A stretch of 64,000 bases of DNA from Malacoraja senta (Eukaryota), in NCBI GenBank assembly GCA_038087875.1, contig CM075995.1, forward strand, positions 10,604,001 to 10,668,000, written 5' to 3'. Each line of letters begins with the position of its first letter. Position 1 is the stretch's first letter. The position numbers were made by a program, and so were the translations under genes. The notes under the pieces are model-generated. The model did not search any database. It saw nothing but the letters and a program-made list of their open reading frames with translations, and was not told the DNA's origin. This document shows, piece after piece, positions 5,953-52,730 of this stretch.

Positions 5953-5982
5953 CTTCTGCTCATTAAGGTAAGTAGTAACCCT

Positions 5983-18600: not shown

Positions 18601-18945
18601 CTTAGGAGGCTTGATAGTCGTCGGTCGCCTAAGCCCTCCATATGAAGGAGCCTGGCAGCACGCTCCATCCTGCTGAGTCCATAAATCTGGAGCAGGAGCT
18701 CCTTAAGGCCGAGGTATTTATCGGTGGCCGGGGCGGCTGCGAGGAAGTCCGTGACCTCTTCAACCGTGTCCTGGTCGAGGGCCCCCACCAGGTAATAGAA
18801 ATGGGTGGCATCGACTGTGATGCCCCGCAGGTTGAATTGGGCCTCCGCCTGCTGGACCCAGATGTGCGGCTGGGTGGTCCAGAAGGTGGGCAACTTTACA
18901 GAGACCGTGTCCAGAAACAGGGCCGGGCCGGCCTGTGAGGTGGTA
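15670..18945 (-). mobile_element. GC-rich Ty3/Gypsy internal region in standard PR-RT-RH-IN order, frameshifted, no LTRs recognised
   Basis: Gag VKLPTFW...QAEAQF (18084-18986), protease FLVDTGA (17740-18135), RT YLDD and RH VDASE (16120-17613), integrase HGLSHP, HVDIVGPL, SDRGPQF and YHPQAN..VER. Confidence 0.93.
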
Positions 18946-18961
18946 GGGCTTTCTGTAGCTA

Positions 18962-19006
18962 AATAGAGACAGAGACATAGAGACATAGAGACATAGAGAC
19001 AGAGAT

Positions 19007-19063
<57 letters not shown>

Positions 19064-19223
19064 TAGAGAGATAGATAGAGAGATAGAGATAGAGAGAGAG
19101 GAGGAGGGAGGGGGGGAGGGGGGAGGGGAGGGAGGGAGGGAGGGAGGGAGGGAGGGAGGGAGGGAGGGAGGGAGAGAGGGAGAGAGGGAGAGAGGGAGAG
19201 AGGGAGAGAGGGAGAGAGGGAGA

Positions 19224-19264
<41 letters not shown>

Positions 19265-19447
19265 AGGGGGAGGGAGGGAGGGAGGGAGGGAGGGAGGGAG
19301 GGAGGGAGGGAGGGAGAGGGAGAGGGAGAGGGAGAGGGAGAGGGAGAGGGAGAGGGAGAGGGAGAGAGGGAGAGAGGGAGAGAGGGAGAGAGGGAGAGAG
19401 GGAGAGAGGGAGAGAGGGAGAGAGGGAGAGAGGGAGAGAGGGAGATT

Positions 19448-19473
<26 letters not shown>
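18962..19473. repeat. Compound purine-rich microsatellite: (AGAGAC/AGAGAT)n, (GGGA)n, (GGGAGAGA)n, (GA)n
   Basis: Directly visible in the sequence. Confidence 0.98.
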
Positions 19474-19481
<8 letters not shown>

Positions 19482-19505
19482 AAATTAATAATTAAAATTA
19501 AACCA

Positions 19506-28582: not shown

Positions 28583-28659
28583 AAGGTTCTGACTGACGCT
28601 AAGTTTTAATTAACTTTAATAGTAAGATTAAACGAGAACTTACCAGTTTAAAGTTTGAT

Positions 28660-31600
28660 AGTAAGATTAAACGAGAACTTACCAAGTTTGAAGTTTGACC
28701 TTTATTTTATGAGGAGTAACGTTGAGGGATTACGTGAAGAAGCCCCGTCCAGCCACACACGCGTCAATCTTTCAAAGCAGCGGAGTGACAATCACAGACG
28801 ATAATTACTGAAGTATGATAGTAAGATGCATAAAGACTTAGAACTACCAGCTTGATCTTTTTATGAGGGTGGGAGCGGAGGGCACGTAATCCCTCAACGT
28901 TACTCCTCATAAAATAAAGATCAAACTTCAAACTTGGTAAGTTCTCGTTTAATCTTACTATTTTACTTCGGAGTCACGTGAGTGACTACGTGAAGATTTC
29001 AAAGCTCTGTGATTTCACACCGTGGATTCAAATCCAGGTGTTCACTGCATCGATTGACTCTATTTGAGTAAGCACAATCAACAATGCATAACCACAACAT
29101 TTGAATGTAATCAGTTAATGGTTTTATTTATTTTAATAAAAATAACTAAAATTAGGCCCATTTATAATGGGGGATTTAATACTGTATCCAGCACGGCATC
29201 ACCAAACCCTCCGAGATCTTTAATCTCCTTGTGGTAATACTTGTGAAACATCTGTTCACTTGCCCATCCTGCGGCCGCGAGAATAAGGTCTATTGGCACG
29301 CTGAATCCCTGGCCGCTGATGTTGATGCCGCCCTCATGGAATGAGATTTAAATTTATCAGTATCAATACCTGAATATCTCAACACCTGTTTCAACCATCG
29401 TGAAATTGTTTGTGTTGATACTTTCTTATGAGGCTTTTTATGACTAATAAAAAATGCCAATTCGGCGCCTCTTAAAACTTGTGTTGTTTCTATGTAACAT
29501 TTCACATATGTTACTACACACAGTCGTGAATCTGTAGGTAATGCTAAAAATTCCAACTTGCATCCTGTGGACCCAGGTCTACTTTGCTTCAGAAAATCAT
29601 AGACATAGAATGTCACGGCATTTTGCCCTACTTTCATTCTATCAATTCTGAGTTTCTGTAATGTTTGAACTCTCTGCGCTGAAACTAATGCCATGAGCAT
29701 AACCAATTTCATGGTAATTTTGGATAATGACAGGGTTTCAACTGGATTCCAACTCCTTAGGAACATCAGTACATCTTTTACATTCCAAATTTCTGTATAC
29801 CTGGGTCTGGGAGGATTAGAGTTGAAATTCCTTTCATAAACCTACAGACCCAAGGATGTTCTCCAATTGGAGTTTGTTCTGATTCACTGCTTAAATATGC
29901 AGAGAGTGCACTTCATGCAGTATTAATTGCACTATAACTTAATTTCAATTCATAGTGTAGAGTTGAAAGAAACTCTATTACATCTGAAATTTCTACTGTG
30001 TTATATGCAATATTCTTTCCTGAACAAAACACCTCCCATTTCTTTATATAGGAAATGTACTGCTTCTGGGTACTATTCCTCCAGGCTGCTGTCATAACCT
30101 CCACCGTACGGTCTGATAATCCTTTTCCAAGATATGCCTTCTTAGAATCTGCAAATCAACAAACCAATACGATTATGTAAAGGATGTGATTCATTAGTCA
30201 CAGGGTGTACAAGCAGTTCAATCTGCTTTGGAATAACCATAAGGGGGTTTTTGATCATTTTTAACACCAGTGGGTACCATACCTGTGTAGGCCAATCTGG
30301 TACTACCAAAATCCCTGAGGCTTGAATCTTGTTTAATTTTCTGTATGCATTTGTGGATTAAACACAATGATGGAAAAGCATACAGAAACATACCACCCCA
30401 ATGTAGTGAGAAAGCATCCACCACTACTGCTCCAGGATCAGGTTCCCATGACACATACTTAGTCAACTGGTGGTTCAATCTTGATGCAACCAGATCACTT
30501 TCTGGCATTCCAAATTGTGTGATAATTTGTGTGAATATTTTCCGATTTAACATCCATTCTGTATTATCATTAAATTTACGTGATCTTTTGTCTGCAATTG
30601 TATTAATTTTTACCTGGTAAATATATTGCTGACAGCCAAATTTTTCTGGCAATACCCCAGGTCCAAATTTCATTTGCCAATTTATCACATGATTCTGATT
30701 TTATACCACCCATGTGATTTATGTATGCTACAGCTGTAGTATTGTCAACCTGTACCTGAACATGCACATTTCCCATATCAGTGCAATAAGCTCTAAGGCC
30801 GTAAAATGCGCCTAATAGCTCTAGATAATTGATTCCCAGATTTTCCAGCAAAGGTACTTCATTCACATTCCACCTACCTCCACAGCTGGAAATCATGTTA
30901 GTAGCACCCCAACTCAGCACACTTACATCAGTCTGTAGAGTGACGGAAGGTGTTTCTACCAGAACTTTTCTGGAAGTATTAGAAACATTGTTAATCCACC
31001 ATTCTATTTCTGTAATGGATTGAATTTGTTAATTTCATGGGCCTGTCAAAATGCCCTCTATTCATTTTTAACGCTTGTACCTTAGCTCTCTGTAAACATT
31101 GATAATGCAATGGTCCAAACGTGACCGCTGGAAACCCTGCAATTAATTTGCCACTTCTCTAATTGAAGGCGTGTCCTCGTTAATGGGTTTTATGCAACCT
31201 TCAATTAACTGCAGCTTTTTATCTTTTGGCAAAGTGATTACCATGTGTTCGGAGTTAATTGTGAATCCTAGGTAATCAATCTTTTTGCTTGGTAACAATT
31301 TAGATTTTTGTAGGTGAATAATGAAACCTAATTTCTCAAAATGTATTTGACTCTGGATACTGACAATTTTGCAGCAGCCAAAGTGTCCCCTACAATGAGG
31401 ATATCATCTAAATAAGCCATTAATACATGGCCCTCAGCTCTTAACAGAGCTAAAATTTGGTTTGAGCAATTTAGTGAATAATCTTGGTGCTGAAATCAGA
31501 CCAAGCAGAATAATATGCATTTTGCAGATCTATGCTTACCTTATAGCAATTCTTTGTGACTAGCTAAATGGCATTAGTAAATGTTTCCATTTTGAAATGT

Positions 31601-33564
31601 TTCTATTGTACATAAAGGTTAAGATTTGTCAGATCGGAAATGATTCTATATCCACCATCCCTTTTCTAGGAGAATATTCCTAGGAGAATATTTGACACAA
31701 ACTGATGGTGTTGTTCTCCTGACATTTATATCATCCTTTTCTGTATAAAGTTTTTTCAATTCTCCTTTGATCAACCCATTCTCTTCCTTTGAGAAAATCC
31801 GTGACCAGTTTGAATTATGCTGAATTGGAGGATCCAAACATGGAGAGAACTCAATTTTGAATCCTACAATGCTACATAGAATAAATGAATCATTTGTTAT
31901 TGATTGCCATTCTTTTAGGAAGAATCGTAACCTTCCCCCTATTTGTGAGTGTGAAACATTTGTTGTGTTTCTTACCAGACCAAGCCCCCTAACCTCGGGG
32001 TTTGCCACCGGCAGTTGTTGTCCCCTTCTAGTAGGCACATTGTAACCTCCACATATCCTCGGTGCAGCACGTCAACGTGTATACGAGAATGATAGGATTG
32101 TTCCTTCTCCAGCACCACATTTCGCCTGTAGGGATACTGCCTTCTCACCGCTCTGCTCAGCATAGGTGATCCTTTAGTTTCTTTGCTAGATTTTCTCCAA
32201 AACAGATTTAGGCATTTGTATATTGCATGGTTTGCAGAGCCTGCATACTTAGGATGAATATTTGGTCTTATTGCATTTTTATGAATACAATTTATTTCAA
32301 AGTGCACACTACACATGAGTGCTACATTTTGTTGTGAATACGATATATAACCTTCATCCAAACCACTGACCCCAGAAATTTCAGCACTTGTGTAATTTCA
32401 ATTCTTGTGAGTGTAAACCACTGCTCAAATTACCCATATCAAGTTTATTCACTGCTGTAACTGCTACAATTTCCCGGGTCTCATATTTTTTGATAGTCTC
32501 ATCCATGGTTAATTCCTGGGCTGATGGGAGAGTAGATAATTTATAGTCATAGCTATTTCCTCTCTCAAAGGTTCCCCTGTTACTCTGGGAACAGCAAAGT
32601 TTTGTGCCAGCCTTGGAACATTTTTGGCTCTGATAATGGGCTCTTGTCCTCATTTAAATCATCATCTAAATCTAGATATTCATTTTTATGTTGGGTAATT
32701 TCTGGCTCCCCTGTTTTAGGTAAGTCTCTGCCAGATTTCCCCTGCGCGGGCTCTCTTGTAGGCCCACGGACAGGCAGCCCTGCTTCAGGTGCTGCTGGCG
32801 CTGGCTCAATTCTAGGCCAACGCTTCATTATTTTTACTCTTTATATTTGTCGGTGCTGGCACATTTATCATTGCACGTTTGTGCTGCCTTTTGTTCAGGC
32901 ATTTCTAGTACTGGCTCTCCAATAGGCCAACACATAACTTGCCTTTTTTCTGGCATTTTTGGGCACTGGCTCTCCTGTAGGCCAACCTCTTTAATGTTTC
33001 TGCACAGGCATTCCTGATGGCTCTCCTGTAGGCCACCCTTGTGCCTGTTCCAAGGCACCTCCTGTGCTATACTTCATTGGCCAACACCGACTTAAATCCT
33101 CCTGTGGGGGTTCTTTACAAATCATCTGCCCCATAAGGAGTTAAAACGTTTTTGACCCTTGCAGTGTAATACTCTTTCCTGCCTGAGGAGGGCATACCTC
33201 CGGGTCTGACTCATCCGACCCTACAGGTCGGGACAATTTTTTTGCTGCCACTGACTCCTCTGACTGACGCCCGCTACCCTTAGGATCTGGGGTTTTACTA
33301 CGGTGCGTCCCTGGCCTCTCCTTCCCATTTCTCTATAATAAACTTGTGTGGAGCTCCACCAACAAGTCTAAACGGGAAGGAAACGCTCCTGTAAGTGAAA
33401 AGTAACTCCACTTACCTTCTTTTACTTTTGTCTTACTCACCGGCTGGAGGAACTCCTGCTCCTCCACACACGGTCATGAACGCTATGCGTCTGATCGATA
33501 ATGACGCGTGTGCGGCTGGACGGGGCTTCTTCACGTAGTCACTCACGTCACTCCGAAGTAAAAT
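28660..33564 (-). mobile_element. DIRS-A, full-length and degenerate, inserted in the 3' terminus of DIRS-B
   Basis: Both termini, ICR at about 28883-28995 and ITR pair at 28731-28766 / about 33502-33538. YR AQRVQ/HSMR, MT YAFP, RH INYLELL/VDNTTA, RT YLDD. Confidence 0.92.
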
Positions 33565-35272
33565 CGTTATTTTATGAGTTACGATGAGGGATTACGTGAA
33601 GATCCCGCCAGCCCGCATGCGCGTCAATCTTCAAAGCAGCGGTGTGAAATCACAGATAACAGCTGTTGAACTGAATATAGGAAGATTCGAGAAACTAGAA
33701 CTACCAGCTGAACTTTATGAGAGAGGGTTGGGAGCGGAGGGCACGTAATCCCTCATCATAACTCCTCATAAAATAAAGATCAAACTTCAAACTGGTAAGT
33801 TCTCGTTTAATCTTACTATTTTCAAAGCTCTGTGATTTCATGCCGTGAAAACGAGTCCACACAAGCACAACTGCATCAGTTGACCACAGATAAGGGAAAC
33901 ATTCATAATGCATACAGACATGATATAGATTTAAAACATGCTGATGCTTTTTAATGAACAAATAATAATAATAGTAACCCCTCTCATCCAGGAGGAAACA
34001 ATAAAATAGAACCTAAAATAGAGTTGGCAAATACCCCCGGTCTGGCAATGGATTATTATAAAATGTTTGGAAGCTCATTAGACCATCCTGCAGCCGCTAG
34101 GATGTGGTCCAGCGGAACGTAAATAACCCTTGCTGCTGATGTTGTAGCAGCCCTGGTGGAGTGAGATTTGAAAATATTAGTATCTACTCCTGCATAAGCC
34201 AAAACCCCGTTTTATCCACCTGGAGATGGTCTGAACTGATACCTTCTTATGAGGTTTTTTGTAACTAACAAAAATTGCTAGTATGAGAGCCTCTAAGGCT
34301 CTAGGTAACCTTGACGTATTGTTGTAAATGTGTGACCACACACAACGGAAGGTCCATGTGGTATGCCATGAAACTAGTTTGAGACCTGACGCCCCTGGGC
34401 TGCTCTGCTTAACTAAATCATAAACATAAAATATTATATTATTTGCAGATGTAACCATCCTGTCCAGTCGCAATTTATGTTGTGACTGGACCCGTTGCGC
34501 TGAGATCAGCGCCATGAGGATAACTACCTTATGAGAGCCGGCCCAAAGATAAGGATGTAGCTGGAGTCCCCTGGTGAAGTAGTGTTAACACAATGTCAAT
34601 ATCCCATACTTCCATGTACTTGGGCCTGGGAGAACGTGTTAAAAATATCCTTTATAAACTGGATATCAGAGGGTGAGACCCGACAGAGTGGGTCCCGCTC
34701 GCTGCAGCAAATGTGATGAGAAGGCACGTTTGGCACAGTTAATGGCACTATAACTTAATAGTAAGATTAAATGAGAACTTACCAGTTTGAAGTTTGATCT
34801 TTATTTTATGAGTTACGTTGGTGATTACGTGAAGAACCCCACCAGTGCGCCTGCGCGTCAATCTTCAAAGCAGCGGGGTGAAATCACAAAAAAACAACAA
34901 ACAAAGTAATATAGTTACATAATAAAACGAGTAATTCAAGAACTTCCATCTGACCTTTATGATAGAGAGTTGGGCCGTGGTGGGCACGTAATCACCAACG
35001 TAACTCCTCATAAAATAAAGATCAAACTTCAAACTGGTAAGTTCTCGTTTAATCTTACTTTTTTACTTCGGAGTCACGTGAGTGACTACGTGAAGATTTT
35101 AAAGCTTTGTGATTTCATGCCGCAGAACAAATCCCGGCTTCTCACTGCATTGATTGACTCGGAACGAGAAATCATCAATAATGCATTAATAATAACATTT
35201 GTACCACAAATGCAGTAATTCATTTATTTTAATAATGAAAATTAATCAGATCCCCTTTTAAACCAGAGGAAT

Positions 35273-36253
35273 TTATACAGAACTTAAAATAGTTTCTGCA
35301 AACAATCCCGCATTAACAATAGGCCGATGGTAAAACTGTTGAAACATCAACTCATTGGACCACCCGGCGACTGCGAGAATATGGTCGACGGGGACGTCTT
35401 TCGCCCTGGCCGCCGACGTTGCTGCTGCCCAAGTCGAGTGAGACGTACAAACATTAGTGTTAATACCAGCAGCTGTTAAGACTTCTTTTAGCCATCTTGA
35501 AATAGTCTGTACTGAGACTCTCTTGTGTGGTTTCTTGTGTGTGATAAACAACCCAGTTTCCGTATTTCTCAAAACCTTTGTGACCTCAATGTATTGTAAC
35601 AAATATGCCTTAATACAGAGACAAGGATCATTTGGATATGCTGTTAGCACAATTTTAAATCCCGTCACACCTGGCCTACTTTGCTTTAGTAGGTCATAAA
35701 TGTAGAATGTAACATTATCTTCAGCTACTTCCATCCTGTCTATTTGTAATCTTTGAAATGTCTGCACTCGTTGTGCTGTCACTAATTCCATAAGCATGAC
35801 CACTTTCATACTGAGTTTGGCCAAAGGCAAAGACACGCTTGGTGACCATTCACGAAGTACCTTAAGAACCACACTCACATCCCAGATTCTCATGTACCTA
35901 GGTTTAGGAGGTCTAGAATTAAAAATTCCTTTCATTAGTCTGGAGACAAGTGGGTGAGACCCAATAGGATTTCTTTCTGACTCCACAACCAAATATGAGG
36001 ACAATGCACTTCTGGCTGAATTAATTGCACTATAACTCAAACCTTCATCAAAATAAAGTGTTGACAGAAATTTTAAAACATTTGAAATATCTGCCGTACT
36101 ATATTCAACATTCTTTTGTACACAGAACTCTTCCCATTTCTTAACATAAGAAAGGTACTGTTTTTGAGTGCTCTTCCTCCAGGCTGCCGTAAGCATGTCC
36201 ACAGTACGCACAGACAGTCCTCGCCCCAGAAAAGGCCTTCTTAAAACCTGCAA
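35273..36253 (-). CDS. DIRS-C tyrosine recombinase (open frame, catalytic HxxR mutated)
   Basis: LSYSAINSARSA, AQRVQ, HSTW (R to W; TGG at 35429-35431, consistent with CpG decay), AGW and FY. Confidence 0.88.
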   Translation of the reverse strand: MQVLRRPFLGRGLSVRTVDMLTAAWRKSTQKQYLSYVKKWEEFCVQKNVEYSTADISNVLKFLSTLYFDEGLSYSAINSARSALSSYLVVESERNPIGSHPLVSRLMKGIFNSRPPKPRYMRIWDVSVVLKVLREWSPSVSLPLAKLSMKVVMLMELVTAQRVQTFQRLQIDRMEVAEDNVTFYIYDLLKQSRPGVTGFKIVLTAYPNDPCLCIKAYLLQYIEVTKVLRNTETGLFITHKKPHKRVSVQTISRWLKEVLTAAGINTNVCTSHSTWAAATSAARAKDVPVDHILAVAGWSNELMFQQFYHRPIVNAGLFAETILSSV

Positions 36254-36271
36254 ATTAACAAATCCAAACGA

Positions 36272-38004
36272 TCATATAATGGATGTTGTTCCCCTGTTAC
36301 CGGGTGCAGCAGCAGATCCCTTCTTTTTGGCTTTCATCAAAGGCTGTGTCGTTAATTCTAATATTAAGGGGAACCATGGCTGTGTAGGCCAATCTGGTAC
36401 CACTAGTACCCCTGAAGCAGCATCTTGCCTGATTTTAAGCAAACATCGGCTTATGAGGCAGAAAGGTGGAAATGCATATAAAAACATAACACCCCAATGT
36501 AGCGAGAAAGCATCAATCGCTACTGCTCCTGGATCTGGTTCCCATGACACATATCTAGATAGTTGATGATTTAGTCTAGATGCGAATAAGTCGATGTCTG
36601 GCATTCCAAACCTGATTACTATGTCATTGAATACATCTCGATTCAACATCCATTCTTTATTATCATGGAATTTTCTTGACCTGGTGTCTGCTATAATGTT
36701 CAATCTACCTGGTAGATGAATAGCTGAAATCCAAATATTCTTTTCGATACACCAAGACCAGATTTGATTAGCCATTTTGTCACATGACACCGACTTGATT
36801 CGACCCATATGATTAATATAGGCAACTGCTGTTGTGTTATCAACTTGAACTTGAACATGCAGATTAGTTGTGTTAGAACAGTAAGCTTGGAGTCCATAGA
36901 AACATCCTAAAAGCTCCAAATAGTTAATTCCCCATGTCTGCAGTAACAATGACTCTTCCTGATTCCATCTGCCTCCACAGCTGGATGCCAAATCTGTTGC
37001 ACCCCATCCTAGTGCACTGACATCAGTTTGTGATATCATGGAAGGTTGTTCAATCAGTACTTTGCTGAAACTGCTTGAGACATGTAGAATCCACCACTGC
37101 AGATCAGAAACAGCATTTGTTGTTAGTTGCATGGTTCTATCAAAATGACAGCATGCATCCTCAGTGTCTGTTGTTTAATTCTCTGCAGCTGTTGATAATG
37201 TAATGGCCCGTATTGAACTGCTGGGAATGCTGCTACTAATTTACCCAGTACTCTAGCCACCTGTCTGATTGAAGGTTTTTGCTCGTTTAACAGATTACTG
37301 CAATCTTCAATCAACTCCACCCTTTTTTCTCTGGGCAAAGTAATTTTCATGTGAACTGAATCAATTGTGAACCCCAAATAATCAATTGAGGTGCATGGTA
37401 TTAACCTTGATTTCTTTGGATGAATTAGAAACCCCAAACTTTCAAAAGTGGATTTCACAACTGAAACAGGTGATTCTGTTGACTCTTTTGTCCTTCCTAT
37501 AATCAGGACATCATCCAAGTATGCCATTAGTACATGCCCCTGGCTTCTCAGCAACCCCAAAATTGGTTTTAACAATTTGGTGAATATTCTGGGAGCTGGA
37601 GTTAACCCATTAGGCAGAGCTTTAAACTGCCATAACTGGTTCATCCAGGTAAATTTAAGATACTACCTATCTTCCAAATGAACAGACACTGAATAATATG
37701 CATCTTTTAGATCTATAGTTGCCATATAACATGCTTTTGAAATAAGCTGCTTGGCAGTCACAAACGTCTCCATTTTAAAATGTCTAAATTCAACAAAAGG
37801 ATTCAGACTTGTCAAGTCTAAAATAATCCTACATCCTCCATCCTTTTTTGGTCGAGGGAATACATTTGACATAAATTGGTGAGTTTGGTAAATTGATTTT
37901 TCAATAACACCTTTTTTATATAGGTTTTCAAGTGCAGCTTGAACCTCCATCACTTTTTTTTGTAAAAAGTGGAGAATTCTGCTAGGAACATGCTGGACAG
38001 GCAA
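36272..38004 (-). pseudogene. DIRS-C pol: RT, RNase H and adenine methyltransferase-like domain, frameshifted
   Basis: KKDGGCRIILDL, HFKMET, IDLKDAY, LPNGL..APR.FTK, YLDD, QTDVS, INYLELL, DNTTA, DLFASRLN, YAFPPF. Confidence 0.92.
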
Positions 38005-38222
38005 ATCTTAATTTGGATTGAATTCAATTGAATCCTTGTATACTACTCAGAATTACAAAGTCTGAAGTAATCTGCTTCCAATCTTTATAGAAGAGATGTA
38101 ATCTGCCCCCAACTTTTGGGGTTACTACAGTTAGTATGTTCCCATGAGAACCAGGTCCACCTAACTCAGGTCATTTGAGTGACCTGTGGTCCCTGGATTC
38201 TCCCAGGAGGACCCACGCTGGT

Positions 38223-39386
38223 TCATGCTCCCACTGCAGGTCGCCAACTACGCCCCTGCGATGATGAGCGACTTGGTCCTGGTCCAGCATCAGTATGATG
38301 TCTGAAAGGATACCTCCTCTTTACAGACTTTCCAACCATCGATGTTTTCATCAATCCGGCTGTTTTCGCTTCATCCTCCAACTCCTTTACACGTCTCCCG
38401 AGATCCTCTCCAAAGAGTAAGTTGGGTAATTGTATATTACTTGGTTTGCAGAGTGCTGCGAATTTAGGATTGATAGTAGGCCGAATAGCACACTTCCTCA
38501 GACAATTGATCTCGAAGTGGGTGCTGCATAGCAACCCCAGTGCCTCCTGATGCAACTCCGTCATCTCCTGGCTTCTATCTGTTATTCTGGCAAAAGCAGT
38601 TATTCCAGAACCCAGGAGCTTTAATATTCTCTGCAATTTTACTTCTTGACCTCTCATAGTCATGCTCATCTGACTCCAGATCACTTGATTCTCTGCTGGT
38701 GCTTTCAACAACACACAGTTACTTGGAGTCTCATGCTTTCTTGAAGTGTCATCCATGTCAAGCTGTTCCAGCTGATGGGAAACCAAGTAATTTATTAGGG
38801 AGGCCAATTCTTCTCCTAATGGCTCTCCTGACCCTGACGGGGCAGCGAATCGTACTGCCAGAGGTGGAATATCTGGCAGCTGCCATTCTTCGCCTTGGAC
38901 AGCCTCACCGTCAGAGTCGGGGTCTGAACTCTCATGACGCGGGGCACGCGCCTCATCCCTGAGGGTGCATTCCAACAGCCCTTTGCTAGGTGCTGCTGAG
39001 CTGCTTTCTGCAGCCTGGATTTTGCTACACTCTTCTCTGAGTGTGTTTCTTTCCAAAAGCCTGTGCATGAGGCTTTCCATTTGTGATATCCGCTCAAAAG
39101 CAGTATCCAGCCCTGGAGTTACCTCCATTTCCTCGGACTCCTCCTCCGTGGGCCGTATGGATTTGAACTTCGCCTTGCGCCCGACTGGCGCTGACTGCGT
39201 TCTTTTCAGCCCCAAATCCACAGTCGCTACACTCTCCGCTGGCGACTGTACTGGGGTCAGAGGCGGCTGGTCGCCGACCGCAATCTCGCGACTCTCTACT
39301 GGCTGTGCCGCTCGCCTCCTCCCCTTGCCCGTTTTTTTCATGGCGCCTGTGGAAAAAATCCCCACAGACCCACAGCAAACGGACAC
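38223..39386 (-). CDS. DIRS-C gag-like ORF1
   Basis: First long ORF after the 5' terminus. It is homologous to ORF1 pieces of DIRS-A and DIRS-E (HFEINCLR..AIRP..NPKFA.L, LLFG.DL). Confidence 0.8.
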   Translation of the reverse strand: MSVCCGSVGIFSTGAMKKTGKGRRRAAQPVESREIAVGDQPPLTPVQSPAESVATVDLGLKRTQSAPVGRKAKFKSIRPTEEESEEMEVTPGLDTAFERISQMESLMHRLLERNTLREECSKIQAAESSSAAPSKGLLECTLRDEARAPRHESSDPDSDGEAVQGEEWQLPDIPPLAVRFAAPSGSGEPLGEELASLINYLVSHQLEQLDMDDTSRKHETPSNCVLLKAPAENQVIWSQMSMTMRGQEVKLQRILKLLGSGITAFARITDRSQEMTELHQEALGLLCSTHFEINCLRKCAIRPTINPKFAALCKPSNIQLPNLLFGEDLGRRVKELEDEAKTAGLMKTSMVGKSVKRRYPFRHHTDAGPGPSRSSSQGRSWRPAVGA

Positions 39387-41174
39387 GGAAATACTTCGAA
39401 AAAAGTTTATATTTACCTTGGTAGTTCACAACTACAATTCCACTAGAGGAGCTCACGTCCGTTTACGCCAATGCGTCTGACGTAATGGCGCACTGGCGGG
39501 GTTCTTCACGTAGTCACTCACGTGACTCCGAAGTAACATTTATTGTCAAAGACCCATTTGAAAATGAACTCCAAGACGTCAGTTGTCCGTGCCGAATTAC
39601 ATGTAACATTAGCATTTAAACAAAATGCTTCCCATCTCCTGAAGAGGCAATGTATTGCTTTTTTGGTGCTATCCCTGCACTCTGCAGTGAGCACACACAT
39701 GGATCGGTCTGACAACCCGAGCCGCAGGAACAGTCGTCTCAGAGTCTGCAAGTCAATGAACTGATTTTATCATGCAGAGGCTGGTTTCTTGAGTCACAGG
39801 CTGAACCAGCAAAGTTTTATGTTTCGAATAACCATACAAGGTTCTATTATAATTCCCAACATAAGCGAGAACCTTGGCTGCATAGGCCAGTCAGACAGTA
39901 TGAAAAATCTGAAGCAGGATCTTGCTGAATTTATTGCAAGACCTGACTGATGAGGCAAAATGGAGGAAAGACATAAAAGAACATTCCTCCCCCGTGTAGC
40001 GAGAATGTATCTCTCGGCACTGTCATGCCACATATTTTTGCAACTGGTGAATGAGCCTGGATGCAAACATATCGATATTCGATGGTCCATTGAGCCATAA
40101 TGTCATAAAATACTTTGTGATCCAACATCCATTCTGAGTTGTCATTGATTTTACGTGGTGATACACCAGCGCCAAATGAGGTTAGGTAAATTATCCCAGG
40201 ATACTTTGACTTGATTGACCCATGTGACTAACATATGCCACCAACACGGTGTATCAACTTGGAATAGAGCATGCAGATTATGCATATTCGCACAATAACC
40301 CTTTAACCCATAGAAAGCACCTAGTGTCTATAGGTAGTTGATACCAATAACTGAAGAATAGGTAATTCATGCAAATCCCATCTGCCTCCGTGACTAGAGA
40401 TGGCATTCGTAATTTTCCATCTTTGAGCACTAGCATCAGTTTGTAATATAACTGAAGATTTACTGACCAAAACTACTGGAGCAATGCTGAATACTGTTCG
40501 TCCACCATTGTGACTTTGGTAGCTTCAGATGGTAATAGCATAGGTCTGTTAACAATGACCTACATGGCACTTGAGAGGTTACTACTTTGCACGTTGTAAG
40601 TTCTGATAATGCAAAGGCCCAACTTGCACAGCTGAAACACAGCTACTATATTGCCAATTACACTTGACGAATAGAAGGCTGCTTCATAACAACAAGGTTG
40701 TTACAGGCTTCTATTAATTCCAATCTCTTGCCCCAGGGCAGAGTCACAGACAAATTAATAGTTAAAGGTAAATCCCAATAATCAATAACTCTAGTTGGTA
40801 TCAACTTAAATTTAACTGGATGGATGAGGAACCTAAATTTCTCAAACATATTTTGCAGCTGAAACAGTTGATTTGAGCAAAATACAGTGTTTAGAATATC
40901 ATCCAGCTAAGCCATAACAAGTGTTTTTGAGCTCTGAGCTGTCCAAGCACCGGTTTTAGTAATTTGGGAAATAACCTGGGAGCTGAGGTTTGCCCATTTT
41001 GCAACGCATTAACTGTTATCATTGCCCCATCCAGATAAATTTCAAATGTCTCCGGTGATCCCTGTGAATGGGACCTGAATAGTATGTATCTTTGAGATCG
41101 ATGCATGCCATAAAGACATTCGAGTTAAATCAAGGATGAACCTTCATCCTCCATCTTTCACAATGAACAGGCCA

Positions 41175-41492
41175 CGCCTGCCATAATTCCGTGCCCGACT
41201 CGAACGACAACTCTGGCCAGATACCCGAGCCTGTCTCAAAAGGCAATCCTGGCCATAATACTGAGCCTGCCTCAAAAGACAACTCTGGCCATAATTCTGA
41301 GCCGGCCTCGAAAGACAACTCTGGCCTTATTTCCGAGCCTATCTTGAAAGGCAATCCTGCCCATAATACTGGGCCTGCCTCGAAAGACAACTCTGGCCAT
41401 ATTTCCGAGCTTGTCTCGGAAGGCAATCCTGGCCATAATACTGAGCCTGCCTCGAAAGACAACTCTGGCCCCAATTCCAAGCCATGCTTGGA
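41175..41492. repeat. 36-bp minisatellite, about 8.5 copies, inside a foreign segment in DIRS-B
   Basis: Translates as 12-aa units DNSGH(N/I)SEPASK / GNPGHNTEPASK. Confidence 0.9.
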
Positions 41493-43529
41493 ACGCTTGT
41501 ATACTGTGCAGTATAAACTAATCACATGTTATCATTTTAGTTTATAAACGGATCTGAATCTCATGTTATCATTGTCATTTGTACAAAAACAAGTGTAAAT
41601 ATTACCAACTTGTAAATGGTCCACATACCCCATGTTTCAGAAGAACCAGACCCACCTACCTCCATGGTTACCGGTGGTCTTATGGTTAGCCCAAAGGCCC
41701 GTGATGTGGGTTCTATTTCCGTCCTTGATTGGAGAGTAGGACTGGTAGGGTGTGTGGATTTCATATTTTTCCTGAGACCAGATTGGGCCTTGGCCTGCCC
41801 AGCTTTCAAGCTGCCACCAGCTTTCAAGCTGCCACCAGCTTCAGTGAACCGCTTACTGCCGATGAAGGGGTGGGGTGTGTCGTTGCCGAAACGATGAAGC
41901 TTTGCTCATCATCGGTACCTTGATTAGTCCGACAGCTTTTGTTTCCTCATCCAGGTATTACCTGTTGGATAAGTCTTACCTGAAGAAAAGATTCGGCGGC
42001 TGGTTTCATTGCCTGGATTTCATGCCTCCAATGTCACCCCTGATAGCGCTGTTCACTGCCAGCACTTGTAGCATGAGGGGAACTCTGGCCCCTTCCGGGT
42101 TTTCTGCCAACGGCTGGAAACCAACTCTTCCGGCACCAACACCTTCGTTTGCGAGTATTCCCTTGAAGCCATATCCATGTGCTCCAGTATGTTCCACGGA
42201 CATTCTTTCGAATTTGAAGTCAGTTACACACTGACCACTCGCACTCCTCTCCACAGAGAGGGAGATTCATAGGCAGCCCTGAAAACAGGTGCTGCTGCAG
42301 GCCCCTGAGGATACCTGCGCTGATACGGCCCCTCCTACGGACCTATATCAGGATGGAGCATCACATTTGTGGGATAAACGCCCGAGGGTTCAATCCATGC
42401 TCCATCTGGGTTAAACGTCCGTGGACGCACCCAGGTATGTCGGAGGGGAACCCTCCTGGCCTGACTCGTCCGAGTCCATAGGCCTGACCAACTTATTCTT
42501 GGATTTACTCCCTTTCTGGGGAACCACAGCGGTCTGTGAGCCGCTGACCACACTGTCAGCGACTCGGGTGGCGAAACCGACTTACTTTTGGCCTTACCCC
42601 ATTTCTGGGGAACCACAGCGGTCTGGGAGCCGCTGACCACATTGTCAGCGACTTGGGTAGCGAACCAGATGCCTGCCGGCTACCCGCGCTTCCGCGGTCC
42701 GGTCCGGGATCTCCCCACGGTCCATAACCGGTTTCCCCGCGGCCCGTCCGGACTTCGGCCCGAAATTATCCAGCAGGAAAAACTCTGTAAGAAGAGATTC
42801 CTGCAAGAAAAAACAGAACCTGGCGATAAGTTCAAAACTTAACTGCAGGTTTAAACTTACCGCTGGAAGGAGCAACGCGCCTGCCAGTCAGTCATTACGC
42901 AATGCGTTAGACGTAATGACGCGCATGCGGGCTGGCGAGCTCTTCATGTAGTCACTCACGTGACTCCGAAATAAAATGTATGCAAAGCCTTTACCACTTG
43001 AATAACTCTCTGCACTGATGTTCTTGTGTTCCTCTGAGCGAGCAATTCATAGTGCTCCCACGCTGGAAATGTGTCTATTTATTCGCTCCTCCTGCCTGCA
43101 CATGAAAAGAACACTCCATGCCGATCAACAGATCTGAGCCAGGACGATATGCCCAGTGATCTCCTTCCTAGTGCCTATTTCAAACCCTCGCCCCTTCCTC
43201 TGCTTCTGTTGAATCGTTCATTGAAGGCTCGGTAATTCCCACACCGGTTGCTAGAAGATTCCTACAGCCCTGCTGGGAAATATACGGCATTTCTCCAGTT
43301 AAATGGGTAAAGCAGTCATTAATTTAAACAAGAACTGATATTTATAAAACCTGTTCAAATGTACATTAAAACAGGCAATGACGAGTTTAAAATGTAAAAG
43401 GCAGCTGAGCAAACAGACATACTGTCCATTGGCAAGACAGTGAACTGTTCTGGTAAACATCAGCTGAATGTAAAACAATGGGGTCTGTTACTTGGCCGAC
43501 ATCAAACCACTAATCCTCAGCATAGGTTA

Positions 43530-45416: not shown

Positions 45417-45430
45417 TTACTTTGGAGTCA

Positions 45431-45621
45431 TAGAAATATAGAAACATAGAAACAAAGAAAATAGGTGCAGGAGGGGGCCATTCGGCCCTTCGAGCCAGCA
45501 CCGCCATTCATTGTGATCGTGGCTGATCATCCCCTATCAATAACCCATACCTGCCTTCTCCCCATATCCCTTGACTCCACTAGGCCCTAGAGCTCTATCT
45601 AACTCTCTCTTAAATCCATCC
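45431..45621 (-). mobile_element. Short CR1 3' end inserted in the DIRS-E 5' terminus
   Basis: (CATAGAAA)n tail and GGCCATTCGGCCCTTC hairpin. It separates GGAGTCA from GTGACTACGTG. Confidence 0.85.
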
Positions 45622-48254
45622 AGTGACTACGTGAAGCCCGCCAGTCCGCATGCGCGTCATTACATCTGATGCATGGCGCAACGATGGGCTGGCAGGCATG
45701 TAGCTCCACCAGCGGTAAGTTTTAAAAACCCTCAGGTAACTTAAAAAACTTAGTTGAGGGCGTTTTCTGCGGTCGGTAAGTCTTGTTGCAGGAGCAAGTC
45801 GGACCATGGAGAAAATGACTAATGAAATGGTCAAGGCGGGCCTCTGGGAGAGCAGCTATAGTGCGGGTAGCGGGTGGCCGTCGATCTCACCTTCAAAGTC
45901 ACTGGCGGCACTGCCAGTGGCTTCCGACGTGGTGCCGGTTTGTAGCACCATGGCTGCTCCGGTGGGACGGAAAGCCACTAAGAAGTCGGTAAGGCCCATT
46001 GACTCGGATGAGTCGGGCCAGGAGGGTTCCCCTCCCACAATAGATAGCGTCTTCGGACGTCTGTCCAGGATGGAGCTCCTGATGGAGAGGATGTTCCATC
46101 ATGATATGCTCCAGCAAGAGGAGCTTTATATCCGCGTGTCTCCTCGGGGGCCTGTGGCAGCGGCACCTGTTGAAGGGCTGCATAATGTCTCCCTCTCGGA
46201 GGAGGAGAGCATATGGGGTCAGTTTTGTTCTCACTCCAAGTTCGGAGGTGTAGCCGGTGAGCATACCTCAAGGCAAGAAGGCCGCGAACCAGGGGTGCCA
46301 AGCATGGCATCTAAATTTGCTATACCGACCGGAACTGTGGAACCACTGGATGCGGACCTGGCTATGACTATAAATTACATGGCCTCACGCCAGCTGCAAG
46401 ACCTCACATTGGAAGAAACTTCCAAAAAATACAAGACACCCGCCAATTGTGCCTCGATCAAATGCCGACTGTGAACCACGCTACCTGGGGTCACATGGGT
46501 GTAGGTATCAGAGCCCAGGAAGTGAGGCTCAAGAAGATATTAAAGATGCTTGCTTCAGGCATTACAGCTTTTGCTAGGTCGGTCGATGGAGGGCCCCTGT
46601 CTGAGGTGGAGAAGGATGCTCTGGCCCTAATGTGCAATGCACATTTTGAAATAAACTGTCTCAGAAACAGTGCTATCCGTCCTACTCTGAACCCCAAGTT
46701 TGCAGCACTATACAAATCTAGCAATGTGCAGCTGCCGAATCTACTGTTCAGTGATGACCTACCAAAACGGGTCAGAGAGTTGGACGACGAGGCAAAAAGG
46801 GTCGGCCTCATAAAAGCCCAACCGACTAGCAAAATTCCACTTTGGCGGCAGCACCCCTACAAGCGGTTCACTGAAGCTGGTTCAGGCCAAGGACCAAGTC
46901 CGGCCTTGCAAACCATGCACAATTGGCGCACTCCAACATTCTTCCCCTCCAGAACTCGGGGGAAGAAGTTTCCACCGACAACCATGGAGGTAGGTGGATC
47001 TGGTTCTTTTCAGAACATGTCATGTATGGATCAGTTACAAGTTGGTGGGAGATTACACTAGTTTTTCAATGAATGGTGTAGCATAACATCAGATTTGTTT
47101 ATACTGCACATATACAAGGGTTCCAAATAGAATTCCTTTTCAAATTGCATCCACCTACACAGCATACACCAAGCCGGACATTGGTTTTTTCACAACAAGA
47201 ATCTTTAGATGTACAAGCTGAAATTGAAACGTTATCTAACTAAGGGGTAATTGAGAAGTCGTTTCATCAATCTCACCAATTTGTGTCTAATATATTTCCT
47301 AGACAAAAGAAGGATGGTGGGTGTCGAATCATTCTTGATCTAACTCGACTTAACTCCTATGTGCAGTATAAACATTTCAAAATGTAAACTTTTGTTACTG
47401 CTAAACAACTGATTTCCAAAGGATGCTATATGGCATGCATAGATCTTAAAGATGCATACTATTCAGTACCCATTCATTACAATCACCGGAGATATTAGCT
47501 GGATGAGGCAACGATGGCAGTTTAAAGCATTGCCTAATTGGTTAACTTCGGCTCCTAGATTATTTACAAAGTTGTTAAAGCCTGTGTTGGGCCTACTCCG
47601 GGCTCAGAATCATATAGTAATGGCCTATTTGGATGATGTCCTAATCATAGGCAAGACTCGGAAATCAGCTGAATTATCTGTTTCAGCTACCAAACTCATG
47701 TTTGAGAGGTTGGGGTTTCTCATCCTTCGAGTTAAATCCAAATTGATACCATCTGGAGTCATTGATTATTTGGGATTCCCCATTAATTCAACTCACATGT
47801 CTGTGACTCTGCCTAGAGGCAAGAGATCAGAGTTAATAGAAGCTTGTAACAATCTTGTTGATGAGCAACCATCTTCTATTCGACAGGTGGCTAGTATAAT
47901 TGGCAAATTAGTGGCTGCTTTTCCAGCTGTACAGTTTGGGCCATAACGATATCACAATTTACAATGTGCAAAGAAGCAGGCACTCAATAGATATGCAGGT
48001 CATTTCAATCAACCCATGCGGTTACCAGCTGAAGCCATTGATGAGTTACAGTGGTGGATAGCGAATATTTGGCATTGCTCCAGTAAAATTCTGATTGATA
48101 AACCTTCAGTTATTTTACAAACTGATGTTAGTGCTCTAGGATGGGGAGCTACTGATACCATCTCTAGCTGCGGTGGCAGATGGAATGTGCATGAGGCATT
48201 AATTCGTCAATCACATGGTATTAACTATTTAGAGTTGTTGGGAGCACTCTATGG

Positions 48255-51200
48255 ACGCAGTCGGGAGACCCGGATGGTAGTTTGCCTCCCTGGTGCCAGG
48301 GTCTGTGATGTATCTCAACGTGTCCAAGATATCCTGAAAGGGCAGGGAGAGGAGCCCGAGATCGTGGTACATATAGGTACCAATGACATAGGTAAAAAAA
48401 GAGAAGAAGTCCTGAAAGGAGAATTTAGGGAGTTAGGAGGGGAGTTAAAGAGAATGACAGCAAAGGTAACAATCTTGGGATTACTGCCTGTGCCATGCGA
48501 CAGTGAGAGTAGGAATGGAGCGAGGTCGAGGATAAATGCGTGGCTGAAGGACTGGCGCAGAAGGCAGGGATTCAAATTTCTGGATCATTGGGACCTCTTT
48601 TGTGGAAGGTTCGACCTGTATAAAAAGGATGGGTTGCACTTGAACCTGAGGGGGACCGATATCCTGGTGTGGAGTTCTGCAAAGGCTACTGGGGCGACTT
48701 TAAACTAGAATGGTTGGGGGGAGGGACTCAAATAGAGAATGCTATTAGACAGTGTGTGAGGCAGGAGGCAGAGAAAGAAAGCACTCAGACCCAACATGTA
48801 GGGGGGGAAAGAAGAAAACAATAATAAACAGGGAATAAGAGGTGGTGGGGTTCTTAAATGGGTGAGCAGAGAAACAGAGGGGTGTAAAATGCGGGCGGAA
48901 CCAATAGGTAGCAAGGTGAAAAGTAAAAGTGGCAGGCAGACAAATCCAGGGCAAAAATCAAAAAGAGCCACTTTTCAACATAATTGTATAAGGGGTAAGA
49001 GCATTGTAAAAACAAGCCTGAAGGCTTTGTGTCTCAATGCAAGGAGAATTCGTAATAAGGTGGATGAGTTGAACGTGCAGATAGCAATTAATGATTATGA
49101 TATAGTTGGGATCACGGAGACATGGCTCCAGGGTGACCAAGGCTGGGAGCTGAAGAGGATTTCTTGGAATGTATGCGGGATAGTTATATAAACCAACATG
49201 TAGAGGAACCAACGAGAGAGCAGGCTATTCTAGACTGGGTATTGAGTAATGAGGAAGGGTTAGTTAGCTGTCTTGTTGTGCGTGCCCCCTTGGGCAAGAG
49301 TGACCATAATATGGTTGAGTTCTTCATTAGGATGGAGAGTGACATTGTTAATTCAGAAACAACGGTTCTGAACTTAAAGAAAGGTAACTTTGAGGGTATG
49401 AGACGTGAATTGGCCAAGATTGACTGGCAATTAGTTCTAAAAGGGTTGACGGTGGATATGCAATGGAAGGCATTTAAAGACTGCATGGATGAACTACAAA
49501 AATTGTTCATCCCAGTTTGGCAAAAGAATAAATCAGGGAAGGTAGTGCATCCGTGGATAACAAGGGAAATCAGGGATAGTATCAAGGCAAAAGATGATGC
49601 GTACAAATTAGCCAGAAAAAGCAGCATACCAGAGGACTGGGAGAAATTCAGACACCAGCAGAGGAGGACAAAGGGCTTAATTAGGAAAGGGAAAATAGAT
49701 TATGAAAGGAAACTGGCAGTGAACATAAAAACTGACTGCAAAAGTTTTTATAGATATGTGAAGAGAAAGAGATTAGTTAAAACAAATGTAGGTCCCTTGC
49801 AGTCAGAAACAGGTGAATTGATCATGGGGAACAAGGATATGGCGGACCAATTGAATAACTACTTTGGTTCCGTCTTCACTAAGGAAGACATAAATAATCT
49901 GCCGGAAATAGCAGGGGGCCGCGGGTCAAAGGAGATGGAGGAACTGAGTGAAATCCAGGTTAGTCGGGAAGTGGTGTTGGGTAAATTGAATGGATTAAAG
50001 GCCGATAAATCACCAGGGCCAGATAGGCTGCATCCCAGAGTACTTAAGGAAGTAGCTCCAGAAATAGTGGATGCATTAGTGATAATTTTTCAAAACTCTT
50101 TAGATTCTGGAGTAGTTCCTGAGGATTGGAGGGTAGCAAACGTAACCCCACTTTTTAAGAAGGGAGGGAGAGAGAAAACGGGGAATTACAGACCAGTTAA
50201 AGGCCTGACTCACGAGTCTGCGGTCATTGGTGGCGAACCGGGAAGAATCTGCCGCCATAGACCGCGCACTCGTGAGAACGCACAATTCCGGGGCCATGCG
50301 TTCCCAACACCGCACAGTGCAAAAATAAAACCTACACTGTTGAAAATTATATTCTTACCGCACAACCTCCACCAGTGATGCACGAGTGCGGCACGGCCGC
50401 CCGCACGGGCCGCCGCCAGTGTGGCTCGAGCGCCGTGCGTCAAACTTCCACTGCCACAGCCTCCGCCGATGACCGCAAACAGGTAAGACAGAGCCTTTAG
50501 TCTAACATCGGTAGTGGGGAAACTGCTAGAGTCAGTTATTAAAGATGGGATAGCAGCACATTTGGAAAGTGGTGAAATCATTGGACAAAGTCAGCATGGA
50601 TTTACGAAAGGTAAATCGTGTCTGACGAATCTTATAGAATTTTTCGAGGACGTAACCAGTAGAGTGGATAGGGGCGAACCAGTGGATGTGTTGTATCTGG
50701 ACTTTCAGAAGGCTTTCGACAAGGTACCACATAAGAGATTAGGATACAAACTTAAATCACACGGTATTGGGGGTTCAGTATTGATGTGGATAGAGAACTG
50801 GCTGGCAAACAGGAAGCAAAGAGTAGGAGTAAACGGGTTCTTTTCACAATGGCAGGCAGTGACTAGTGGGGTACCGCAAGGCTCAGTGCTGGGACCCCAG
50901 CTATTTACAATTTATATTAATGATCTGGACGAGGGAATTGAAAGCAACATCTCCAAGTTTGCGGATGACACTAAGCTGGGGGGCAGTGTTAGCTGTGAGG
51001 AGGATGCTAGGAGACTGCAAGGTGACTTGGATAGGCTGGGTGAGTGGGCAGATGTTTGGCAGATGCAGTATAATGTGGATAAATGTGAGCTTATCCACTT
51101 TGGTGGCAAAAACGGGAAGGCAGACTATTATCTAAATGGTGGCCGATTAGGAAATGGGGAGATGCAGCGAGACCTGGGTGTCATGGTACACCAGTCATTG

Positions 51201-51886
51201 AAAGTAGGCATGCAGGTGCAGCAGGCAGTGAAGAAAGCGAATGGTATGTTGGCCTTCATAGCAAGGGGATTTGAGTATAGGAGCAGGGAGGTTCTACTGC
51301 AGTTGTACAGGGTCTTGGTGAGACCACACCTGGAGTATTGCGTACAGTTTTGGTCTCCAAATCTGAGGAAGGACATTATAGCCATAGAGGGAGTGCAGAG
51401 AAGGTTCACCAGACTGATTCCTGGGATGTCAGGACTTTCATATGAAGAAAGACTGGATAGACTTGGCTAATACTCGCTAGAATTTAGGAGATTGAGAGGG
51501 GATCTTATAGAAACGTTCAAAATTCTTATGGGGTTGGACAGGCTAGGTGCAGGAAGATTGTTCCCGATGTTGGGGAAGTCCAGGACAAGGGGTCACAGCT
51601 TAAGGATAAGGGGGAAATCCTGATGAGGAAAAACGTTTTCACACAGAGAGTGGTGAATCTCTGGAACTCTCTGCCACAGAGGGTAGTTGAGGCCAGTTCA
51701 TTGGCTATATTTAAGAGGGAGTTAGATGTGGCCCTTGTGGCTAAGGGGATCAGGGGGTATGGAGAGAAGGCAGGTACGGGATACTGAGTTGGATGATCAG
51801 CCATGATCATATTGAATGGCGGTGCAGGCTCGAAGGGCCGAATGGCCTACTCCTGCACCTATTTTCTATGTATCTATGTATCTATG
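48255..51886 (+). mobile_element. Long CR1: ORF1 SGNH-esterase C-terminus plus ORF2 (APE with internal deletion, RT) and 3' tail
   Basis: CLPGA, HIGTND, DGLHLN; NARR, TETWL, SDH; QHGF, LDFQKAFD, GVPQGS, FADD; (TATCTATG)n tail. The DIRS RH frame LGALYG / LKAYC is split around it. Confidence 0.93.
50200..50497. mobile_element. MITE of about 300 bp with imperfect TIRs
   Basis: AAGGCCTGACTCAC..TGCGGTCATTGGTGG against inverted AAGGCTCTGTCTTAC..TGCGGTCATCGGCGG. TA or TTA TSD in host CCAGTTAGTCTA. Confidence 0.82.
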
Positions 51887-52730
51887 ACTTAAAGGCGTAT
51901 TGTACTAGTATGCATGACTTGCATGTTCAGCTTTAGATTGACAACACTACAGCAGTAGCATACGTTAATCACATGGGTGGAATCTAGTCGGTATCATGTG
52001 ATAAATTGGCTAACCTTATTTGGCATTGGTGTATTACAAGAAACATCTGGATTTCAGCTATCTACTTACCAGGTAGATTTAACATGGTGGCGGACATCAG
52101 GTCACGAAAATTCAATGACAACACAGAATGGATGTTGAATCATGAAATATTTAATGATATTGTCGCTCGGTATGGCGTACCAGATATTGATTTGTTTGCA
52201 TCCAGACTAAATCACCAGCTACCAAAGTATGTTTCATGGGAACCAGACCCAGGGGCAGTAGCGGTAGATGCATTCTCGCTACACTGGGGTGGAATGTGTT
52301 TATATGCATTTCCCCCATTTTGCCTCATCAGTTGGTGCTTGCTTAAGATCGAGCAGGACTCCGCCTCAGGCGTTTTGGTAGTTCCCGACTGGCCTACACA
52401 GCCATGGTTCCCACTCGTTCTGAGACTAATAACACAGCCTTTTATGGCTGTCCCCAAATGCAGTAACCTGCTGGTTCACCCTGTGACTGGGGAGAACCAT
52501 CCACTACATGACCGTATTAATCTATTGATTTGCAGATTCTGAGGACACAGTTCCTGGGGCTCGGACTATCAGGTCGTACGGTGGATGTGATTACTGTGGC
52601 CTGGAGGGATAGTACTAAAAAACAATACATCTCTCATATCAAGAAATGGGAGGTGTTCTGCTTGCAGTCGAACATATCATATCACACGGCAAGCATACCT
52701 GATGTGTTGGAATTTCTTTCCACACTATAT

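Follow-up and report, generated by a model that had tools for sequence, protein, structure and literature searches.

The window, the whole analysed stretch of 64,000 nucleotides from the Malacoraja senta genome (1.94 Gb), contains four DIRS1-like copies, A, C, E and D/B. In each of them a 17-nt inverted repeat surrounds the ICR, which raises the question of whether the repeat forms a real helix, on which strand it folds, and what the fold does. The rebuilding of DIRS ends has rested on a model of 1985 and has been little tested beyond the need for the ICR and the single-stranded DNA intermediate. A preliminary description of the window gave eight arm coordinates in A, B, C and E, all of which were correct, and proposed a pseudoknot or alternative fold that hides or exposes the ICR.

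The host elements and the stem around the ICR

The elements and the coding regions of C are located as follows (strands in this and the later lists are those of the window).

28658-33561, minus strand: element A
34757-39536, minus strand: element C
about 45417 to 55692, plus strand: element E, interrupted by other repeats
5' part from 42974, 3' part the B of the preliminary description: element D/B, split by C and A
35273-36271, minus strand: tyrosine recombinase (YR) ORF of C (PF00589, E 3e-6; PF13495)
36272-37662, minus strand: pol pieces of C (RVT_1, E 5.7e-15; a Dam-like methyltransferase, E 0.009, under the Pfam cut-off)
39487-39536, minus strand: left terminus and left ITR of C, with a private 8-nt loss at the inner end of the ITR

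Four copies are thus present, as had been described, but B is the 3' part of the element that starts at 42974 and not an element of its own. D/B is a nested host (window 28618-42974), with C inserted in its recombinase gene and A in its right extension (rE), the rest of which was located past the right end of A. Its 5' piece corresponds to residues 20-80 of the YR of C, and B continues from residue 78. In the ICR of B, the left-terminus part is deleted.

The gene order of C (reverse transcriptase, methyltransferase, tyrosine recombinase, all co-oriented) is that of DIRS1-like elements, and ITRs and a right extension are present, as is an ICR that complements both termini. The 3-bp sequence ATT is found at the element ends and at the circle junction. 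Pfam RNase H had no match in the pieces of C that were scanned. The nearest named YR relatives come from a skate, and the exact ICR junction occurs 11,408 times genome-wide. The TACGTGAAGA core is present in both ITRs and in the left ICR, and the right ICR has its first 6 nt.

The window holds further repeats. Tandem 4.97-kb units of an RT/integrase retroelement, 99% identical, occupy positions 1-11927, and a second, gypsy-like retroelement with a DUF7041 ORF lies at 15692-19484. The insert that splits E (47947-50378) has an ORF with a GDSL/SGNH domain (E 3e-12) followed by a 413-aa ORF, probably ORF1 and ORF2 of a LINE. The left ends of the DIRS copies (39400-39536, 42850-42974 and 33480-33561) contain TCACGTGA, GCGCATGCGC-like and GTCATT words, which we take to be E-box, NRF1 and initiator motifs, and have a GT(A/G)AG donor-like site about 60-80 nt beyond the ITR. 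Together, the words and the donor-like site suggest a start at the inner end of the ITR and a spliced leader. Elsewhere in the genome, loci L143, L144 and L315 show head-to-tail DIRS copies and likely insertion into the ICR junction of another copy, which suggests a preference for self sequences; L315, best read as an insertion within another copy's ICR, was excluded from the evidence.

The stem, which we call the clamp, comprises 27 bp in three helices, P1, P2 and P4, and closes a loop that holds the ICR. The 17-bp P4 runs on into the 4-bp P2, followed by an internal loop and the 6-bp P1. The minus (cDNA) strand of C is the plus strand of the window, and that of E the minus strand; outside the lists, plus and minus refer to the element.

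34857-34863, plus strand: P1 strand GTCAATC, partner 35152-35158; its first 4-8 nt double as the inner ITR end
34864-34871, plus strand: TTCAAAGC motif 1, in the P1-P2 loop, its GC paired in P2; nearly invariant across 29 families
34870-34873, plus strand: P2 strand GCAG, contiguous with P4, partner CTGC at 35145-35148; 95.5% of cells paired
34874-34890, plus strand: P4 arm of C beside the right ITR, pairs with 35106-35122
35098-35105, plus strand: motif 2, TT(C/T)AAAGC, between core 2 and the top of P4
35106-35122, plus strand: P4 arm of C beyond the ICR, 17 bp with 34874-34890
35123-35144, no strand assigned: P3, a variable insert that turns P2/P4 into a three-way junction; weakly constrained
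35145-35158, plus strand: partner strands of P2 and P1, CTGC..GATTGAC
28781-29022, plus strand: clamp of A (arms 28781-28798 and 29006-29022, one bulged base)
33640-33845, plus strand: clamp of D/B (arms 33640-33656 and 33829-33845)
55336-55574, minus strand: clamp of E (arms 55336-55352 and 55558-55574)

The TTCAAAGC motif therefore flanks both ends of the clamp. The GCTTTGA flanks and the GTCAA..GCAG motif that had been pointed out are present, the flanks reading GCTTT(G/A)AA; the motif, however, is not free but pairs with CTGC..GATTGAC in P1 and P2. P1 is labile, its register being shifted in at least three families. A 4-bp minus-strand hairpin, TGAA/TT(C/T)A (35090-35101), overlaps core 2 and motif 2; its C/T toggle (18 versus 11 families) would exchange G-C for G·T.

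Pairing statistics and the folding strand

The downstream region was shuffled 1,000 times with dinucleotides preserved; the longest perfect arm match was reached 6 times for A, never for B, and once each for C and E. The helix is separate from the ITR and ICR pairings, as had been described. The compensatory change noted in C, G-C to A-T, also held: it is common to the whole C family, and is a single event on the tree. Of 4,949 genomic copies, 4,889 have a Watson-Crick pair here (exact arm patterns AGA/TCT, 2,111; AAA/TTT, 2,778; AGA/TTT, 36; AAA/TCT, 24), and the two mismatch counts, 36 versus 24, were uninformative on the strand.

Since this change was a single event, more families were sampled. 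We collected 239 loci, 20 of them without an anchor, and excluded 16 loci that had been chosen for a mismatch. The resulting 213 distinct rows, window copies included, fell into 55 clusters, 30 with at least two members. In the 29 family representatives (one row was mis-cut and counted as gaps only), 95.7% of 743 cells were paired on the minus strand, a value reached in none of 500 shuffles, compared with 30-42% in slid registers. Seven pairs had changed on both sides. Shuffles are blind to relatedness, and the tree test described below therefore weighs more.

On the plus strand, P4 positions 4 and 5 read C·A in 24/30 and A·C in 21/30 families. Read on the minus strand, these positions form T·G/G·T in tandem, which leaves the helix unbroken. 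The 2x2 mismatch reported beside CGG/CCG in B, C and E is thus a pair of wobbles on the minus strand in most families; the CGG-GG in the arm of C itself is a private change, its family having CGG-TG.

The tree comprised 198 copies and was built from unpaired columns. Fifteen of the 213 rows were dropped because of an unrelated or deleted block, among them L124, L142 and L143, the arms of which are intact and which had been cut at the wrong anchor. We counted a change as inherited if it was present in at least three copies and considered the non-CpG pairs of P1, P2 and P4, leaving uncounted the P1 events limited to five register-shifted families and two single copies. Inherited changes consisted of 21 exchanges between Watson-Crick and A·C (on the plus strand, equivalent to G·T on the minus strand), one between Watson-Crick and G·T, one other mismatch and three double changes. 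Single-copy changes comprised 38, 18 and 36 events of the first three kinds (strand bias, Fisher p 0.009). With CpG pairs included, the A·C to G·T ratios were 23:1 for inherited and 51:50 for single-copy changes. A·C occurred in nine pair columns, and G·T in one, plus the terminal P1.7. The end pair P4.17 supplies 6 of the 21 inherited A·C events, tree events are not independent, and copies may recombine with one another.

Other counts agreed. Compensations at P4.1, P4.10 and P1.6 go via minus-strand G·T, and the 29 representatives contain 75 minus-strand compared with 11 plus-strand G·T cells. With DNA energies, P4 is stabler on the minus strand in 26/29 families, and RNA energies favour this strand in 29/29. 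An initial reading as plus-strand G·U had rested on single copies and was overturned by the family and tree counts. The P3 side hairpin has the opposite bias, with 10 G·T versus 1 A·C inherited changes on the plus strand (rate ratio 0.87).

Harsh mismatches have thus been purged, and the tolerated ones are minus-strand wobbles, indicating a minus-strand fold. We conclude that the helix is a real, selected single-strand structure on the minus strand. The strand bias fits cDNA and antisense RNA alike. In the accessible parts of the Dictyostelium studies, a single-stranded DNA intermediate, the timing of ICR action and the transposition of purified cDNA favour cDNA over RNA, and an antisense promoter in the right ITR keeps RNA as a rival. 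The clamp therefore likely folds in single-stranded minus-strand cDNA. The pseudoknot or alternative fold first proposed survives as a selected single-strand structure, most likely acting in reverse transcription and circularisation, but finds no support as a fold of the plus-strand transcript.

We also searched for distant relatives. Viral contigs yielded none, metagenomes one that ended before the ICR, and genome contigs four DIRS-like sequences (L162-L165) with a YR 41-44% identical to that of C. These four come from contigs of two bacterial MAGs and are likely host-animal DNA in the MAG bins. L163 ends before the second arm, leaving three distant elements with both arms (YR 41-43%). In all three, the corresponding place is taken by a stem whose sequence is unrelated (12 bp, 16 bp and 10/12 bp) and whose duplex energy was matched by 6, 0 and 11 of 1,000 shuffles; the third lacks a long perfect run (339/1,000 shuffles). 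These stems are equally stable on either strand. The first arm lies directly before GCTTT(G/A)AAG in two distant elements, and motif 2 also precedes an arm in L162, L163 and L165. An ICR core, TAAAC..CTTA(C/T)C..AGTT(T)GAAGTTTG (35028-35059), is conserved in sequence between this genome and L162-L165 and is a candidate recombinase site. The AATAAA in rE is not conserved among the distant elements.

Copying sites and error products

The sites at which copying would start, jump and stop lie beside the clamp of C and in the loop that it closes.

34757-34825, minus strand: right terminus (divergent ITR and rE), ending in ATT
34826-34835, plus strand: core 1 (TACGTGAAGA), 10 nt, outer end of the right conserved ITR
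34826-34860, plus strand: right conserved ITR, about 35 nt; its end lies in P1
34891-34964, no strand assigned: spacer, a degenerate rE copy that can pair locally with the ICR ("anti-ICR"); clade-specific
34965-34984, plus strand: G-rich tract of the minus strand of C, its start coinciding with the ICR boundary
34985-35096, minus strand: ICR, a copy of the circle junction in which 34985-35062 correspond to the right terminus and 35063-35096 to the left
35087-35096, plus strand: core 2, 10 nt, with which the left ICR ends; repeats core 1 in direct orientation on the minus strand

The minus strand carries, in this order, the right terminus, core 1, ITR, P1, TTCAAA, P2-P4, spacer and G-run, then the ICR copy (rE, junction, left terminus), core 2, TT(C/T)AAAGC, P4', insert, P2' and P1'. 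Core 2 is 9 nt from the top of the clamp. The core matches the shared core of at least 10 nt given in the accessible part of PMC3266345.

Left ends were located in 16 of the 20 fetched loci and in three window copies. The left and right ITRs match into the P1 arm and diverge 0-4 nt past its CA. Family changes (GTCA, GACA, GGCA) are mirrored in both ITRs, two copies carry a private ITR change, and window C its private 8-nt loss. The left ITR begins 4-8 nt inside P1, and the agreement of the two ITRs into the P1 arm indicates that the ITR starts at the clamp base. A competition of the left ITR for the arm was considered and rejected, as this ITR stops within P1 and does not include P4.

The most frequent ICR end and the most frequent rE start complement each other exactly in 11/11 families in which each was seen at least twice, and in 15/27 overall. 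Four C-runs lie directly at the ICR end in 170/189 copies, and all three distant elements (L162, L164, L165) have four minus-strand GGG runs. G-quadruplexes can stop a polymerase, and the G-run is possibly such a quadruplex-like stop. The spacer is a degenerate rE in 26/27 families (p<=0.01) and in 0/3 distant elements, and it has no strand bias (35 versus 31).

The genome contains products that may record errors of copying. Among the left ends, 3,608 are normal and one is a read-through: in one full-length copy, the left end is the entire inverted right terminus, as predicted by failure of the core jump. Such products may be rare only through an inability to integrate. Core-2/core-1 joins, in which the left terminus and core are fused to the right ITR and a clamp arm, were found in 30 places (L283-L313). 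Fifteen of these are mini-elements of 248-263 bp with 14 distinct flanks, from at least three families and with one of them interrupted; they are exactly the loop between both cores, opened at the ICR junction, and have ATT-type ends. Six are right ends with 10 left-type bases beside the core, and in the remaining nine, with three distinct flanks, the right end of an element bears a left-type cap. Control joins at the 8-nt TTCAAAGC repeats numbered 0; this repeat is shorter than the cores, and in the C family it has only 5 nt.

One full element has an extra loop unit ahead of its left end. The unit differs from the element's own right end at 3/255 nt and is nearer to it than to 49/50 sampled C relatives, one relative being equally near. 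It fits copying past the G-run followed by a second jump, and an insertion next to a mini-element is also possible. The extra-unit element and the inverted-right-terminus element are at L316 (G000:C5:49222600-49228800) and L293 (G000:C1:337167500-337173600). Core-to-core joins do occur, and the clamp as their cause is a separate matter, as recombination between 10-nt repeats could generate mini-elements without a clamp.

Proposed function of the stem and comparison with known systems

The pairing and its selection, the wobble bias, the start of the ITR within P1, the TTCAAAGC motifs, the G-run and the core joins together suggest that the clamp is a scaffold that guides the template jumps by which reverse transcriptase rebuilds the left end, and that it would do so by keeping the two jump sites close to each other. 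On balance, we consider this putative function probable. The 3' end of the cDNA would arrive at the clamp base (P1) and copy the right ITR up to core 1. Reverse transcriptase would then jump from core 1 to core 2 instead of continuing into the right end, and would copy the ICR over the circle junction until the G-run halted copying. The ends would be joined and the recombinase would integrate the circle. The unpaired TTCAAA motifs would be likely contacts for reverse transcriptase or another element protein. A tolerated change elsewhere counts against the scaffold: in the accessible text of PMC7192593, Dictyostelium DIRS-1 still transposed with a marker cassette inserted between its ICR and right LTR. 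As a tentative generalisation, which we rate as possible rather than probable, DIRS1-like elements across animals may use self-folded single-stranded DNA in which two protein-contact motifs set both jumps and a G-quadruplex provides the stop at the far ICR boundary; after a failed stop, the 260-nt loop would be copied in a rolling manner, and the recombinase would integrate the resulting minicircles as mini-elements.

Alternatively, the folded cDNA could be a platform for recombinase, Gag or ligase, serving packaging, ligation or single-strand recombination without guiding jumps. The two TTCAAAGC motifs at opposite stem ends are dyad-like and keep their sequence while the arms turn over, and related TCAAAC repeats occur in the conserved ICR core, as a protein platform would predict. 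However, the ATT recombination junction is in the loop, about 45 nt off the stem, and one-armed mini-elements have integrated precisely at ATT, so that the clamp is dispensable for the recombinase. A platform also fails to explain why the ITR boundary falls inside P1, and we regard a pure protein platform as fairly unlikely.

Also unlikely is a fold in a short, structured antisense RNA begun at the right ITR, which would serve as RNA template of the ICR copy or as a regulator. Such an RNA predicts the identical strand bias, G·U in RNA is better tolerated than G·T in DNA, and the RNA energies favour the minus strand in every one of the 29 families. The right ITR of Dictyostelium is a strong antisense promoter according to the accessible part of PMC4482531, and in the present elements the likely promoter motifs of the left ITR recur in the right one. 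Against an RNA stands the Dictyostelium work, in the accessible text of which the intermediate is antisense single-stranded DNA without the left LTR, the ICR is required after cDNA synthesis, and purified cDNA can finish transposition (PMC7192593). The ICR also acts in cis, because ICR-deleted DIRS-1 failed despite endogenous copies (PMC7192593, same portion). Self-priming of RNA on the ICR is disfavoured, as Dictyostelium makes cDNA without the ICR.

The pseudoknot or switch of the preliminary description, taken as a fold or ribozyme of the sense transcript that would hide or expose the ICR, appears improbable. As described, the helix crosses the pairing of the ICR with the 3' terminus, but it does so only with rE there to pair; in the absence of rE the predicted plus-strand fold is nested. 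The spacer enables this nested fold, and a pseudoknot is therefore unneeded until rE pairs. The plus-strand G·U bias of P3 and the anti-ICR spacer of 26/27 families agree with a transcript fold. However, in nearly all families the clamp, when read on the plus strand, contains A·C mismatches and hardly ever G·U, and the spacer is without strand bias. Self-cleavage found no support either: a search of the window against Rfam 15 gave no match at gathering level, only weak unrelated ones at E 0.4-10 and nothing ribozyme-like up to E 10. A hammerhead-like reading (CUGA..GAAA) was rejected because its core is not conserved, the CUGA-like word being missing from A and C. A switch that hides and exposes the ICR is possible in itself but less supported than the jump scaffold, because the spacer is weakly constrained and absent in 3/3 distant elements.

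That the arms are a by-product of mutual copying or a double-stranded binding site, the two cases that would have undone the first interpretation, is very improbable and largely refuted: arm sequence is highly conserved within the genome and copying does keep ICR and termini alike, but copied parts stay exact (ICR end and rE start, 11/11 families), whereas the arms have fixed one-sided differences (23 one-sided versus 3 double changes) and are unrelated in sequence in distant elements, and neither a double-stranded (recombinase) site nor a cruciform gives a strand bias.

The jump scaffold thus names concrete parts for the rebuilding of DIRS ends: the stem and the strand on which it folds, a pair of motifs, two jump sites and a candidate stop. 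The mini-elements, the read-through end and the two-round copy would be genomic records of jumps, and the stem offers a structure-based marker for the annotation of DIRS ends. The element class is known, and the clamp adds a new cis part to it. Within the literature searched, which did not reach the classic papers of Cappello and of Goodwin and Poulter, the stem, the G-run and the mini-elements are not described, and the accessible portions of PMC3266345, PMC7192593, 10.1101/2021.08.05.455354, PMC4482531 and PMC8632529 mention no such stem.

The elements studied here share with the Cappello circle model, as presented in the accessible parts of PMC3266345 and PMC7192593, the ATT junction, a short conserved ITR, rE, a two-part ICR and the 10-nt core, and their sizes are near those of the mollusc short-ITR elements in Table 3 of PMC3266345. 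Unlike them, that model in these parts has no stem round the ICR, flanking motif, G-run or mini-elements, and it is silent on how the jumps are positioned.

The closest functional analogue is the hepadnavirus h5E/hM/h3E pairing of hepatitis B virus, which, in the available text of PMC8632529, is likewise a minus-strand DNA pairing that aids template switches. The clamp shares its location on the minus strand, as far as the strand alone is concerned (DNA and RNA are not distinguished). The hepadnavirus sequence and replication scheme are unrelated, and its elements pair across the genome for plus-strand primer transfer (same text of PMC8632529). In contrast, the DIRS clamp closes a local 250-nt loop and would restore the end of the minus strand itself.

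Integron attC and CTXphi attP are folded single-stranded DNA of a defined strand in tyrosine-recombinase systems, with structure conserved over sequence. The clamp too is a strand-specific single-stranded fold in a tyrosine-recombinase element. In attC-type sites, however, the fold is the recombination site, whereas here the junction lies in the loop and 15 one-armed mini-elements have integrated. In telomerase RNA, retrons and DGRs, the start or stop of reverse transcription is set by a helix next to the internal template. Those templates are RNA, whereas the evidence presented here points to the cDNA strand.
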